This document shows, piece after piece, positions 46,304 through 52,542 of a stretch of 61,265 nucleotides of DNA. Source of the stretch: a virus; the IMG/VR virus record IMGVR_UViG_3300037420_000518, positions 1 through 61,265 of that record; one strand, given 5' to 3'. Below the pieces are notes generated by a model. The model did no database searches and was not told where the DNA came from. It worked only from the letters and a program-made list of their open reading frames with translations. Every line of letters starts with the position of its first letter. Position 1 is the stretch's first letter. Both the position numbers and the translations under genes were made by a program.

Positions 46304-47422
46304 ATGCCAACTCCGCTTTCATTCGCTGATTTCGTTCCTGCGCATACGCCTTCTGCAACGGACACGGCAGAGGTTCAGATGTCGCAGGACATAGCACGCA
46401 AACGCCGCGAGGACAAGCTGCGTCTAAATGCCCTCAAGAATCAGGACTTGTCTCAAACAATGGCATCGGATGCTACTGCATGGGCTCAGAATCCCGCCTA
46501 CGCTGGAAAGTCGTTCTCTCAGCTTCCAGAGGAGGCCAAGCGCCATTTTGGTATGGATGTCTACGGGCAAGCTTCGGCGCAGTCCCCGGCCGCTTTTAAT
46601 TCAGCGCAACGGGAAGTTACAGGGAACCCGATGGTTGGAGTTGATCCCGAAAAAATCCCCGACGGCGCTACATACACGGTGCACCCAAACGGTGGTGGTG
46701 TAACCATAATGGGCGGTAAAGAGATGAATTGGGAGAAACCCAGCCAGGCGCTTTTGGATCAAGCAGACGAAGCTGGCGTTGAAATTACGGACGATCAAGG
46801 AAAGCCCCGAAAATCATCAGAGATTCGAGCAGACCTCAGAAAGTACCGCTCTTATAATGGTATGCTATCTCCAAATGAGGAAAAGCTTGTAGGAAGGCTG
46901 AATGAGCGTTTTTCCGCCAGCAAAGAGTTTAGGGATGCTACAGAAATGAACCTTGCGTATCAAACCGCTAAATCACAACTCAATAGCGGAGACAAAAGCG
47001 GGCTTGCGGGGATAGCGGCAATGGAGGCATTTGCGCGGGTTCATAATCCAGGCGTGTCTGTTAGGCAGGGCATGATGAACATCTTGGCTGGACATCAAGG
47101 TGTTTTAGGGAAATTACGGGAAGACTACCTAAAGGGAAAAATCACAGAAGGCACTTTCCTTACCGATGAAACACTCAGGGCGATGAATGATGTTCTTGAT
47201 AGAACATATCAGGCGCGATCAAAGGAATTCAACCGGAGCGTTTTGCAACAGTTTAGGAATGGTCTTCGTCCAGAGCTTCAGAAATATATCAAGAGCCCGT
47301 TTCCTGAAGACGTAGAAGCTTTAAGCGAAGGCCCGAAAGTGATTACCAGCCAGGAAGAATACGACAAGCTTCCCGCTGGTGCTCAATACATCGCCAACGG
47401 TAAAACCTACAAAAAACGGTAA
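46304..47422 (+). CDS. Internal-virion-size protein (372 aa)
   Basis: The internal ATG at 46304 lies 2 nt after the upstream stop. Confidence 0.5.
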   Translation: MPTPLSFADFVPAHTPSATDTAEVQMSQDIARKRREDKLRLNALKNQDLSQTMASDATAWAQNPAYAGKSFSQLPEEAKRHFGMDVYGQASAQSPAAFNSAQREVTGNPMVGVDPEKIPDGATYTVHPNGGGVTIMGGKEMNWEKPSQALLDQADEAGVEITDDQGKPRKSSEIRADLRKYRSYNGMLSPNEEKLVGRLNERFSASKEFRDATEMNLAYQTAKSQLNSGDKSGLAGIAAMEAFARVHNPGVSVRQGMMNILAGHQGVLGKLREDYLKGKITEGTFLTDETLRAMNDVLDRTYQARSKEFNRSVLQQFRNGLRPELQKYIKSPFPEDVEALSEGPKVITSQEEYDKLPAGAQYIANGKTYKKR

Positions 47423-50400: not shown

Positions 50401-52542
50401 CCCGCTCTTCAGGATAGGGTTGACCGTTCCTTTGATCCAAAAACAAAAACTGTTGGACCCAAAATAATGGGCGGGGTGCGCGGCACCCGAATTAACCGCA
50501 ACAATCCATCCGATGCCGACCACCTAGCAAGGGCTCTGGAGAACACCCCAGACCCCGAAAAGGCCGACTCTATTGTTAAACAGGTTGAAGACGCGATAGC
50601 CAATAACAAGACCGTAGACATCACGTACAACAGCGCAAAGAGTGAGTCCAAGGAAACACCAACCAACGTTGAGCGTACAAAGGAGCAATCACTTGCGGAT
50701 GTTGGGTTGCTTGATCGTAAAGGTGTACAGAAAGACTTCGCGCCTCAGTACATTGAAATATACGACACCGATATCCCGCATTATGACGAAGCTTCTGTTG
50801 AGCAGGCAAAACAGAGGATAGACGACATATTCTCAGATCCTAAGAAGCGCCGCTGGAACGGCTACACAAACGCTGAGAAGGCCAAACAAGATGTGGAGGA
50901 GTTCGCCAAGCAAAATCGAGAAGGCGGGAAGGCTGAAGGATTCAGCAAGCTGCAAGCGTCTGGATTAACAGAGGTTCTGAAATCTCCAGAGACGCACCTC
51001 TATTTGCGTGGCGATTCCCCCGATAAGACGATAGCCAACGCCAAAAACTTGGTTGCAGCACTGGAGCCACACACGGGCGACAAGGCTATTTCCAACGCCG
51101 TGAACTACCTCAAGGGTAATTTATGGCAGGGTGACCTAATCAAAAGGCGCGAGAACATGGCGAACGGATACCGAGCAGACGGGAAACCATTCATGCTCGG
51201 TGAGGGTGATCCTCAAACAAGCAACCCAGACTTCAAACCGCATCGCCTACCAGATTTCAAGGTTCAGGTTCTAAACCTTTTAGAAGGGGGGCCAACCAAC
51301 ACGTATTTTGAGGAGGCTCAAGCGAATTTACCAAGCGTTGAAGGTGATGCAGAATCTCCTCGTCCTTCGCCGGAGGCATTGCCGGACACGGGATCAAATC
51401 CGTTGGTTAACAAACTCAAGGCTTTGGGTAAAGAGCTTACACTAAAGAAGGAAGGCGGCGAAGAAGTCTCGGGATTAAACAACATCCTGGCGCAGTCCAT
51501 AGAGTCGATTCGACTCGACCGAATCAAAGACCTAAAGGGCAACGCGCCTCTGGAAATAAAACCCAGCGATTACAAGCAACGAGCGGCGGGGTTCATGCCG
51601 GATACCTCCATGAAATCCGACATGCAGCAGCAATCGGAATGGATGGAGCGTGAGGCGCGTGCACGTGGATATGATGGACTTTCGCACCTATTGGATGAAA
51701 AGCCCGAAGAAATGCGCAAAATGGCCGCACAATGGCGCGTTTACCACGCCCGAGATAAGAAGGGAACGTTCTTGCAAGACAAGGCTGTTTCTGCCATAAA
51801 TAAGGCACTCTATGGACGCCAAGCAGCAGACCAAGACAACCCCGACACTCAAGCTAGCCGAGGGAATGCCGGGGAGAGTTCTGCGCTTGGAGATGCGGCC
51901 GCGTTCACGGAAGGAAATGCTGGATCAGGTGAAGAGGCTGGAAGAGGCCAGCCAGAAGCGCAAAGAGATGCTCTAATATCGTGGGCTAGAGATAACGGGG
52001 TTTTGTTGGATAAATGGCCTCGTAGACTCAATACCTCCCGAAGCGTCGGAGGCAATGAGCACGAAGTATGGCCCGATTCTGGACGTTGGATAAAGTCCAC
52101 AAAAGGAACCGGGCGCACAATGGGGTATGTTCCAGAGGCAACCGATTCTGGGTGGTCTTTGCGACCGGCCACGCCATCGGAATATCTCGCTCAGAAACAG
52201 GCTTGGAATAACCTGTTTGGTGACGACATACGGCTACATGCTGTTGTTCAGGACAAGCATGGAAATGTAAACGTGCTTACTTCTCAACCCGACATAACGG
52301 GCGAGTCTGTTTCTCAACAAGACATCGCCGACGCCATGAATAAAGCGGGATTCAAGGAGTTGGGAAACGATGCTTTTTACAGAGAGGATGATAACGTTTT
52401 GGTGTTCGACCTCCACGATAAGAACGCCGTAAAAGTGGGGGGCGTTTTGATCCCATTCGACGGTGGTGTAATTCATCCAGAGTACAGCCTCATTGAGGCA
52501 ATGAGAAATGCTAGCTCAAAAGGAGTAATGGTATCACGATGA
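47422..52542 (+). CDS. Giant virion 'polyvalent' protein (1706 aa) with an HExxH zincin-like motif and a C-terminal kinase-like (Kinase-PolyVal-type) domain
   Basis: 'LGHEAGGHL' at 48862-48879. C-terminal 'GGNEHEVW...WIKSTKG...EYLAQKQAWNNLFGDDIRLHAV...VFDLHDKNAV'. Gly/Ala-rich N-terminal segments. Confidence 0.6.
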   Translation: MAFTPPETDTMVTEPGNSTRKGKWSPPHQDVEGRINDFVEDESFDPVEHYRKGGDLQTAVQVLKRRQDQPTNFGKAAIDFTKGAVKSAPRAVFDFARGVANLGGNAIDAIAGDSAEQQRAARESLAAVELGAKQGFVDRAVGIGRNVRKLFGRKLSDQELEDQILWDAASRHVNDEISKGHLGTANNVGMSPEELAKAGKPIDPERVNRMSFVGDPMTYLIEPAAKAIGPTLGKAVTAPLLGTAGKVVGGVGRIAETASSIPSSLVKGVFVHNPIAAIPGVSANLASKHLLSGVASALTEAGAEAAGAAAPLGQSLARKAFKSGAQGAVTGAALSLPYMASAQSTEEAGAALGGGIGLGGVLGGLQGVKNARRIEVGAKAGQLANEGAQIRYGTGFDEAHEAAMKTVDPATRKIINMYRARFNGMTDKNGVAIQIYLQTGPEFAKNGGADSRGFITPDGTQIFLNADAANTPDRAGETLGHEAGGHLTEYLAELSQQHDLATLRDTLKDSLYTNGKPTPRFQAFIDSYKQDAIKSGITPEEIEAKEKLDPRYFEKEFFAQHAAKILSGEDIANFHLPKPISERLIRGASDWLRSQGIFKKEGGDIGWNGREIKQITGQLRDLLYKQGEQSEALRSARLKGEPAPDVQGKRTRFPENPTLVEQPTQPTATPVNQDQLDAAQNGRFPSNPTLSTPITPAPGFPANPADVDAASQGRFPSTFKVAEQNVPPADIPKTFGVDQPPGAGVPAKEDLAIRMAKSDAMAALKSTSLRGVVPPDQHQARLDAAVKAAQDAGIPITADTLLTYATTGKLPEPMASRQSEQTPKSQPSTTETASFEQSNPATFSNQVKNLWNTSKSGWFGKQFGTGKLLINHAYEQWKKDSGSNASLDEFKQQLLQGARDGKIELSRADFATGVDVNDLRNSTIKHFGEDYQYINLKEPKPEKTNAPQAKEETREAKHPTTGPKTTPVAPSSEGLNIRVTPQDLAPFGPEETRPALQDRVDRSFDPKTKTVGPKIMGGVRGTRINRNNPSDADHLARALENTPDPEKADSIVKQVEDAIANNKTVDITYNSAKSESKETPTNVERTKEQSLADVGLLDRKGVQKDFAPQYIEIYDTDIPHYDEASVEQAKQRIDDIFSDPKKRRWNGYTNAEKAKQDVEEFAKQNREGGKAEGFSKLQASGLTEVLKSPETHLYLRGDSPDKTIANAKNLVAALEPHTGDKAISNAVNYLKGNLWQGDLIKRRENMANGYRADGKPFMLGEGDPQTSNPDFKPHRLPDFKVQVLNLLEGGPTNTYFEEAQANLPSVEGDAESPRPSPEALPDTGSNPLVNKLKALGKELTLKKEGGEEVSGLNNILAQSIESIRLDRIKDLKGNAPLEIKPSDYKQRAAGFMPDTSMKSDMQQQSEWMEREARARGYDGLSHLLDEKPEEMRKMAAQWRVYHARDKKGTFLQDKAVSAINKALYGRQAADQDNPDTQASRGNAGESSALGDAAAFTEGNAGSGEEAGRGQPEAQRDALISWARDNGVLLDKWPRRLNTSRSVGGNEHEVWPDSGRWIKSTKGTGRTMGYVPEATDSGWSLRPATPSEYLAQKQAWNNLFGDDIRLHAVVQDKHGNVNVLTSQPDITGESVSQQDIADAMNKAGFKELGNDAFYREDDNVLVFDLHDKNAVKVGGVLIPFDGGVIHPEYSLIEAMRNASSKGVMVSR

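Follow-up and report, generated by a model that had tools for sequence, protein, structure and literature searches.

Among the proteins of a phage, the polyvalent ones are believed to be the earliest to act in an infected cell, but hardly any of them have been characterized experimentally. In the survey by Iyer et al. (2017, J Bacteriol 199:e00245-17, PMC5512222), the MPTases of polyvalent proteins form 12 clades that are unrelated to earlier peptidases, and one set of them is characterized by a HEXXXH motif with a predicted bend of the helix. The class includes the virion RNA polymerase of phage N4, an injected polyvalent protein with an MPTase domain, and DdrB of phage P1, a processed polyvalent protein that provides a precedent for cleavage (PMC5512222). 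In phage SU10, gp20-24 are virion proteins that are lost on ejection and are numbered directly after the tail genes gp16-18 (PMC9509320). The present analysis concerns P0001, a giant protein encoded in the IMG/VR virus record IMGVR_UViG_3300037420_000518. The window, that is, the whole stretch of DNA analyzed, is a complete 61,265-bp phage genome with direct terminal repeats (DTR), in which the gene is located as follows:

47422..52542, plus strand: predicted polyvalent ejection-type protein P0001, 1706 amino acids (aa), a single uninterrupted open reading frame (ORF) according to the ORF list and its translation.

The ORF was delimited correctly in the original prediction, a note made from the DNA letters alone, and the peptide strings cited there are all present in P0001. 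We consider it likely, with a probability of roughly 70%, that P0001 is a phage-type polyvalent protein that occupies the internal-virion or ejection slot of an SU10-like podovirus and that it works by the mechanism proposed below. As judged from the alignments, P0001 consists of a conserved chassis (residues 1-1390) and one cargo domain, Kinase-PolyVal. The chassis includes, in this order, an N-terminal F-D-P motif, a Gly/Ala-rich zipper region, a zincin-like domain, Pro-rich linkers and a central module. P0001 resembles the proteins of Iyer et al. in being a large multidomain protein encoded among late or virion genes, in the combination of a zincin-type peptidase with effectors from a shared repertoire (a kinase here; ART-PolyVal, GNAT and LPD domains in relatives) and in the HEXXXH variant, the truncated kinase and the predicted self-processing into functional units (PMC5512222). 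It differs from them in that the Pfam model of MPTase-PolyVal does not recognize its peptidase-like domain and in that the chassis components, namely the glycine-zipper region, the central module and the F-M-P junctions, have no Pfam or LPD model.

The cargo domain is found at the C-terminus of the protein:

51958..52449, plus strand: Kinase-PolyVal domain, residues 1513-1676, matched by Pfam PF18762 above the cut-off, with key residues E1546, K1558, Q1622, D1663, N1668 and D1680.

The match to PF18762 spans residues 1513-1676 and scores 32 bits, where 27 are required (E 1.5e-7), and a six-frame search places the same model at 51955-52449 with 36.7 bits; D1680 (52459-52461) is located just beyond the hidden Markov model (HMM) match. 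In an alignment of 24 sequences that includes P0001, five chassis relatives and 18 stand-alone homologs collected by profile search, there is no variation at E1546, H1547, K1558, D1663, N1668 and D1680 and hardly any at S1621/Q1622. Among these are the residues that in protein kinases form the beta-3 lysine, the catalytic loop (D-x4-N) and the aspartate that binds the metal. The marks of the Kinase-PolyVal family are a Glu before strand 2, a Gln in the final N-lobe strand and the loss of the C-lobe (Iyer et al. 2017, PMC5512222). P0001 shows all three: E1546 immediately precedes a predicted strand (1547-1552), Q1622 is at the end of another one (1616-1623), and the C-lobe is missing, as the chain stops 26 residues beyond D1680. 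The AlphaFold2 model of the kinase region, built from the 24-sequence alignment, has a predicted local distance difference test score (pLDDT) of 90.8 and a predicted template modeling score (pTM) of 0.86. In BFVD, which consists of predicted viral structures, one fold match has E 3.5e-11 and a template modeling (TM) score of 0.71 and is annotated as a 'large polyvalent protein associated domain' protein; another, with E 1.7e-8, is annotated as a 'PolyVal Ser/Thr/Tyr kinase', and the two are followed by a third phage giant and then mostly by giant-virus Ser/Thr kinases. The first 26 matches of a fold search against PDB are all kinases (CK2alpha, AmiN, MerTK, YihE, PknG, JAK1 and LegK7), at weak E values of 0.02-0.3. 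Compared with the other members of PF18762, the domain scores above the gathering cut-off and has the same active-site Lys, D-x4-N, Asp, Glu before strand 2 and Gln, as well as no C-lobe, but it is only 22-39% identical to them and here terminates a protein encoded in the ejection slot of a podovirus. The kinase-like polyvalent domain that had been proposed for the last ~190 residues is thus borne out by the PF18762 match, the invariant catalytic residues and the fold matches, and the two accessions given in the original prediction, PF18762 for Kinase-PolyVal and PF18818 for MPTase-PolyVal, are both correct.

By sequence and model, the C-terminal domain is a truncated enzyme of the protein kinase fold with an intact active site, and this fold is settled. 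Phosphorylation of a small molecule (an antibiotic, a sugar or a nucleotide signal), or else a non-catalytic pseudokinase, would fit with the PDB fold matches of the highest probability, which are to the amicoumacin kinase AmiN (0.80-0.87), with YihE also among the matches, and with the absence of the C-lobe that binds the substrate in protein kinases. Both possibilities appear improbable. The active-site Lys, the D-x4-N and the Asp are invariant, so the domain is not expected to be a pseudokinase; as for small-molecule substrates, the family is placed nearer to the protein kinases by Iyer et al. (PMC5512222), and most of the BFVD matches that come next after the PolyVal kinases are giant-virus Ser/Thr protein kinases.

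The second enzymatic component is part of the chassis:

48553..49341, plus strand: zincin-like (MPTase-type) domain, residues 378-640, recognized by conservation, predicted topology and weak matches to peptidase profiles.
48862..48879, plus strand: HEAGGH, a HExxxH motif (H481, E482, H486), read directly from the DNA (cat gag gcc ggg ggg cat).
49087..49101, plus strand: E556-F-F-A-Q, of the form ExxA[EQD], with E556 as a candidate for the third zinc ligand because of its conservation and its position in a predicted helix.

Very probably, residues 378-640 represent a zincin-like peptidase domain of a clade that falls outside the Pfam model. The motif had initially been reported as HExxH at 48862-48879, where the six codons actually encode H-E-A-G-G-H, that is, HExxxH; a search of P0001 with the pattern HE..H finds no HExxH anywhere in the protein. 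The resemblance to MPTase-PolyVal that had also been suggested could not be upheld: PF18818 has no match in P0001 (E<=1), in the protein or the whole genome even at E<=10, or in 37 diverse members of the family (E<=1). Hence, of the proposed combination of a zincin with a kinase, the kinase stands, whereas the zincin fails in the form in which it was described (the motif and PF18818) and is retained by virtue of conservation across the family.

To assess this conservation, residues 378-640 of 13 relatives were made into a profile, which was run on 1.84 billion representatives (E<=1e-3) and retrieved 218 clusters; the proteins in nearly all of them are 1300-3900 residues long and have the domain near residue 450. 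Among 145 copies that cover the whole domain, E556 is present in 100%, H481 in 99%, N465 in 96% and E482 in 95%; the second His is found in 97% of the copies, divided over two adjacent columns, A559 is conserved in 86%, and position 560 is E, Q or D in 144 of the 145. In the alignment of 14 relatives, H481, E482, H486 and E556 are invariant. Among 154 representatives, the spacing is HExxH in 88 and HExxxH in 57, with both forms in one and neither in eight. Dipeptidyl-peptidase III (MEROPS M49) is a zincin with a HEXXGH motif, which has one extra residue in the motif helix; HEAGGH shows the same spacing (H-E-x-x-G-H), a comparison by motif alone that provides a precedent for the spacing only and indicates that zinc can be bound with it. 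E556 is located 75 residues downstream, within E-x-x-A-[EQD], which is the layout of the third ligand in gluzincins. For residues 378-640, AlphaFold2 predicts three strands, a long helix that bears the motif and a later helix that bears E556, and this order of strands and helices agrees with that of the zincin core (Iyer et al. 2017, PMC5512222).

A profile of 37 sequences of the domain, compared with PDB sequences, yields IrrE (E 0.043) and the M7 zinc endoprotease of Streptomyces (0.15), both sub-significant, and further lists a serralysin-type protease C and a snake-venom metalloproteinase, none of which is significant; the best of these matches cover the stretch that includes the strand and HExxH. 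A match of the zincin profile to a designed TIM barrel was rejected as a repeat artefact. When the 37 members are run singly against Pfam, DUF6782, a 'putative metallopeptidase', is found in 4 of the 37 (best 8.7e-4, all below the cut-offs), along with one weak match each to Peptidase_M78, Tox-MPTase2, M7, M13 and DUF2268 and two weak matches to eCIS_core. The zincin assignment is retained because of the family-wide pattern H-E-x-x-(x)-H...E-x-x-A-E, the metallopeptidase flavor of these weak matches and the HEXXXH MPTases described by Iyer et al. (PMC5512222). It is highly unlikely that HEAGGH is not a metal site and that residues 378-640 form a non-enzymatic helical domain. Such a domain would explain that no Pfam peptidase model scores over the threshold, that the AlphaFold2 model is weakest at the motif helix and that Foldseek yields no zincin, but the His, Glu, His and Glu residues are 95-100% conserved over ~145 clusters that otherwise are ~23% identical, the spacing variant keeps both histidines, and the weak matches over the region of the strand and HExxH are to zinc peptidases.

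The family comprises ~218 clusters at 50% identity, all of which are metagenomic. Word-indexed searches and look-ups recovered 13 full-length relatives together with their contigs, the relatives in the same slot being 1300-3900 aa long, and a scan of viral contigs added only two further loci. PHROGs and NCBIfam contain nothing for P0001 or its neighbors, and no relatives in prophages were found in 185,579 species genomes. A phmmer search of P0001 against PDB gave only a chance match, and weak Pfam matches to DUF6107, WYL and Adhesin_P1_N, all below the cut-offs, were dismissed. Past residue ~1393, the relatives diverge completely. The chassis carries Kinase-PolyVal in P0001, P0002, P0004, P0005, P0007 and P0009, and ART-PolyVal in P0008 and P0011; in 23 further giants, ART-PolyVal is found in 8 and Kinase-PolyVal in 3, and LPD37, LPD23, GNAT, methyltransferase and RuvA_C-like pieces are present in this set as well. 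Such a repertoire and its shuffling are the defining features of the class, and P0001 itself combines two conflict-type domains, the zincin-like one and the kinase. Because relatives in the same slot carry ART-PolyVal, GNAT or LPD domains in place of the kinase, the P0001 gene encodes a genuine polyvalent protein. Two of the longer relatives display composite architectures: P0008 (L003:9176-18616, 3146 aa) contains ART-PolyVal (E 1e-22) and several further modules, and in P0007 (L002:8765-16270, 2501 aa) a kinase-like module located between F-M-P motifs is followed by three modules, the last of which has no match in Pfam.

The border between chassis and cargo is marked by a short motif:

51580..51606, plus strand: junction motif R-A-A-G-F-M-P-D-T (F1391-M-P1393).

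F1391 and P1393 are invariant in the alignments of 14 and of 23 relatives. In 148 giants, FMP occurs 320 times against 10.4 expected (~30-fold), and F-L-P and F-S-P are enriched about threefold. The great majority of the F[MSLT]P motifs (535 of 596) are located beyond residue 900, and their number per protein correlates with protein length (r=0.66); the junction context consists of A at -2, G at -1 and E or D at +1 and +2. FMP is nearly restricted to the cargo part, where it marks the borders of the cargo domains. The longer relatives P0002, P0005, P0007 and P0008 have 5-7 copies each versus about one in shuffled sequences, FMP motifs bracket the kinase domain in P0002, P0004, P0005 and P0007, and a single variant of the motif tends to run throughout a given protein. 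In P0161, P0166, P0167 and P0172, H-D-A-G-H replaces H-E-x-x-H and F-L-P replaces F-M-P at nearly all junctions; this co-variation is given little weight because the group is small and probably represents one lineage.

F-M-P could be either a protease site or a cassette or docking junction; both fit, and as a hypothesis the motif is treated here as a candidate cutting site. A cut at G|F-M-P by a zincin with a preference for a hydrophobic P1' residue would be chemically unremarkable. It is possible, with the odds against it, that A-G-F-M-P-[ED] is the predicted processing site of polyvalent proteins, such that the HExx(x)H domain would cut the junctions in cis, in the head or after ejection, and free the effectors. 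If so, this chassis family would represent a clean and minimal system for the unpacking of polyvalent proteins, with one site and one cargo in this phage. A doubtful alternative is that the zincin-like domain serves as an effector or in entry and cleaves proteins of the host envelope or cytoplasm or the peptides of peptidoglycan, with F-M-P serving as a docking or recombination junction. Effector use is the alternative role of the MPTases in Iyer et al. (PMC5512222); furthermore, the domain directly follows the putative membrane-active segment, no other cell-wall hydrolase was recognized in the ORFs scanned from the portal to the genome end, and the cargo differs exactly past the core motif, as would be the case for a cassette junction. 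All this has to be set against the fixation of the domain in the chassis, whichever the cargo, and against the recurrence of the motif between cargo domains in proportion to their number. HExxH peptidoglycan hydrolases are, moreover, uncommon, and the nearly exclusive use of F-L-P in the HDxxH subclade hints at co-variation of enzyme and site, though this is probably a single lineage.

The gene organization around P0001 links it to the SU10 type of phages:

26752-28353: large terminase.
30084-32252: SU10-type portal.
36740-37948: SU10-type major capsid protein.
38441-39112: SU10-type adaptor.
45496..46302, plus strand: second upstream small gene, 268 aa, a weakly conserved member of the gene trio that ends in the giant; blastp matches to the equivalents in L014, L004 and L011, E 7e-7 to 1e-4.
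46184..47422, plus strand: upstream partner gene, ~400 aa; in 9 related loci, blastp matches it to the gene directly 5' of the giant, with a lowest E of 8e-43; no family matches.
52539..53867, plus strand: downstream gene, 442 aa, which begins within the stop of the giant; 40-47% identical over the full length to the gene that follows the giant in L004 and L013; no family matches.

The order of the late operon is terminase, portal, major capsid protein, adaptor, tail genes, the trio of ~250-aa, ~400-aa and giant proteins, fiber and holin. Between the adaptor and the trio, there are several tail-size genes, one of which encodes a 917-aa protein with immunoglobulin (Ig)-like domains. Thus, the P0001 gene is located 3' of the adaptor and tail genes and of the conserved smaller pair and 5' of a 977-aa fiber or tailspike and the holin, in agreement with the original prediction, which placed it after two internal-virion-size genes and before the fibers, and this is the slot in which SU10 encodes the ejection proteins gp20-24 (PMC9509320). 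The ATG of P0001 shares sequence with the end of the upstream ORF (47422) and its stop with the beginning of the following one (52539), and promoter-like and terminator-like sites within the gene are at or below the shuffle expectation; given the overlaps with both neighbors and no excess of internal signals, P0001 appears to be one cistron of a long late operon. The G+C content is flat at ~0.50 and so offers no hint that the gene was acquired recently. If the ~400-aa partner began at its listed GTG, it would share 119 nt (46184-46302) with the preceding ORF; the true start is probably located downstream because homology to the relatives begins only at residue ~47-70.

The same layout is present in 12 related contigs, in which the trio recurs, with the ~400-aa gene homologous in 9. 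In nearly all loci, the giant directly follows a gene of ~390-500 aa, and it is encoded downstream of an SU10-type capsid and adaptor gene in L004 and L005/L006, the loci in which enough of the flank was read. The position after the tail genes and the set of graded sizes that ends in a giant are shared with SU10 gp20-24, T7 gp14/15/16 and N4 gp50. The N4 giant is likewise a polyvalent protein with an MPTase domain, and it is injected. P0001 has no sequence similarity to the ejection proteins of T7, SU10 and N4 and contains no transglycosylase or RNA polymerase domain. The gene is found among tail genes, between the 917-aa Ig-domain tail protein and the fiber, and its ejection is itself deduced, so P0001 could instead be a fixed structural part of the tail (a hub, an extension of the nozzle or a fiber-associated protein) that stays with the particle, with its enzymes acting at the cell surface. 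This appears quite unlikely. The kinase, the NAD-dependent ADP-ribosyltransferases and the acetyl-CoA-dependent GNATs need cytoplasmic cofactors, the long, Pro-rich and poorly conserved linkers are ill-suited to a rigid tail part, and the polyvalent class is tied to proteins that are transferred together with DNA, such as the N4 virion RNA polymerase and P1 Dar (PMC5512222).

The remaining parts of the chassis are less readily assigned to a function:

48289..48531, plus strand: Gly/Ala-rich hydrophobic segment, residues ~290-370, with the glycine zipper G355-x3-G359-x3-G363-x3-G367, found by hydropathy and runs of GxxxGxxxG.
49342..50418, plus strand: linker region, residues 641-999, Pro-rich, of low complexity and poorly conserved, with gappy alignments and no family matches.
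50419..51591, plus strand: central chassis module, residues 1000-1390, with invariant N1206, D1238, N1245, G1249, G1254, N1285 and N1326.

The hydropathy maximum of P0001 (1.29) is at residues 350-368, within the zipper segment, and the zipper glycines G359 and G363 are invariant in 14 relatives; the segment is a candidate membrane-inserting helix. The central module has no match in Pfam, PHROGs, NCBIfam, GenBank phages (by tblastn) or PDB (by profile). The F-D-P motif (window 47551-47559, F44-D45-P46) is ~6-fold over-represented in the family (228 versus 39 expected) and has a near-invariant copy close to the N-terminus ('SFDPVEHY').

Under the preferred reading, that of an ejected polyvalent protein, P0001 would be packed in the head together with its two conserved small partners and expelled either ahead of the DNA or with it. 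The hydrophobic part of the chassis might help to build or to anchor a conduit across the envelope, the zincin domain would cut the polypeptide at the F-M-P junction and release the kinase into the cytoplasm, and the freed kinase would phosphorylate host proteins early in infection, which would favor the take-over of the cell or blunt its defense. The relatives would deliver ADP-ribosyltransferases, acetyltransferases and other modules on the same chassis. The gene and its context, the intact active site of the kinase, the conserved signature of the metal site, the division into chassis and cargo and the junction motif are seen in the sequences themselves; packaging, expulsion, the role at the membrane, cutting, phosphorylation of host proteins and a role in counter-defense are extrapolated from the location of the gene and the known properties of the class. 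Action in the cytoplasm rather than at the cell surface is favored because the enzymes on the chassis need ATP, NAD or acetyl-CoA.

Several observations weigh against this reading. Searches of PHROGs, Pfam, NCBIfam, PDB and GenBank phages reveal no homology of the P0001 sequence to T7 gp16, to any PHROG or to the ejection proteins of SU10, and 50,697 GenBank phage records gave no tblastn match to the complete P0001 or, taken separately, to its zincin region, central module or kinase. The hydropathy of the hydrophobic segment, 1.29, is below the usual transmembrane threshold. All profile matches of the zincin domain to peptidases are sub-significant, the model of this region has a pLDDT of 70 overall and of <55 at the motif helix, and a Foldseek search of the model against PDB yields no zincin and nothing below E 0.7, only helical proteins with low TM scores, a null result that is uninformative given the pLDDT of 70. 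Profile searches and domain-by-domain structure prediction, the checks that had originally been proposed, therefore turned out well for the kinase (32 bits versus 27 for PF18762; pLDDT 90.8 with fold matches to PolyVal kinases) and failed to confirm the zincin (no significant peptidase profile match; pLDDT 70 with no zincin in PDB). The nearest solved structures of the kinase domain include the small-molecule kinases AmiN and YihE, so that proteins are no more than its presumed substrates. Finally, P0001 contains a single junction motif, which alone is at the level of chance; since the lone copy is no more than that, the motif gets its meaning from the family.

Several additional features of this genome and of the related phages deserve mention. 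The 977-aa fiber or tailspike (window 54904-57837) contains an N-terminal piece similar to a tail-fiber collar, a GH28-like beta-helix segment and a C-terminal laminin-G/concanavalin A (ConA)-like domain, a composition that suggests a polysaccharide receptor. In the early region, a 557-aa protein (window 13856-15529) shows only weak matches of the coiled-coil type, to tape-measure and SbcC-like PHROGs; a tape-measure match is odd in a short-tailed phage and probably is a coiled-coil artefact. A related phage encodes an N-acetylglucosamine (GlcNAc)-type glycosyltransferase and a sulfotransferase within the block of tail genes (L004:6174-7789, minus strand). Stand-alone response-regulator receiver proteins are encoded 3' of the structural genes in related phages (L007:13027-13503 and 14415-14738; L004:21408-21854), one of which also has a small protein with a weak match to the Acb2/Tad1 hairpin, possibly a candidate signal sponge.

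The class, the truncated kinase, the HEXXXH variant and the idea of self-processing are already present in Iyer et al. (2017, PMC5512222), and P0001 leaves the picture of what polyvalent proteins are unchanged. An SU10-type, podovirus-like group with genomes of ~60 kb and the fixed gene trio did not turn up in the passages of that survey that were searched (PMC5512222). What is particular to the P0001 family is the compact chassis linked to SU10-type phages, the gene trio, the unmodeled peptidase clade and central module, the absence from GenBank phages and the F-M-P junction.

Altogether, P0001 is a compact example of a polyvalent protein, with one chassis, one junction and one kinase, whereas in its relatives the same chassis appears to be a delivery vehicle for interchangeable host-modifying enzymes. 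Because the family is large (~218 clusters) and has no member among the cultured phages sequenced, it points to a considerable gap in our view of phages, and with its junction motif the self-processing predicted in 2017 can be tested at a defined site.

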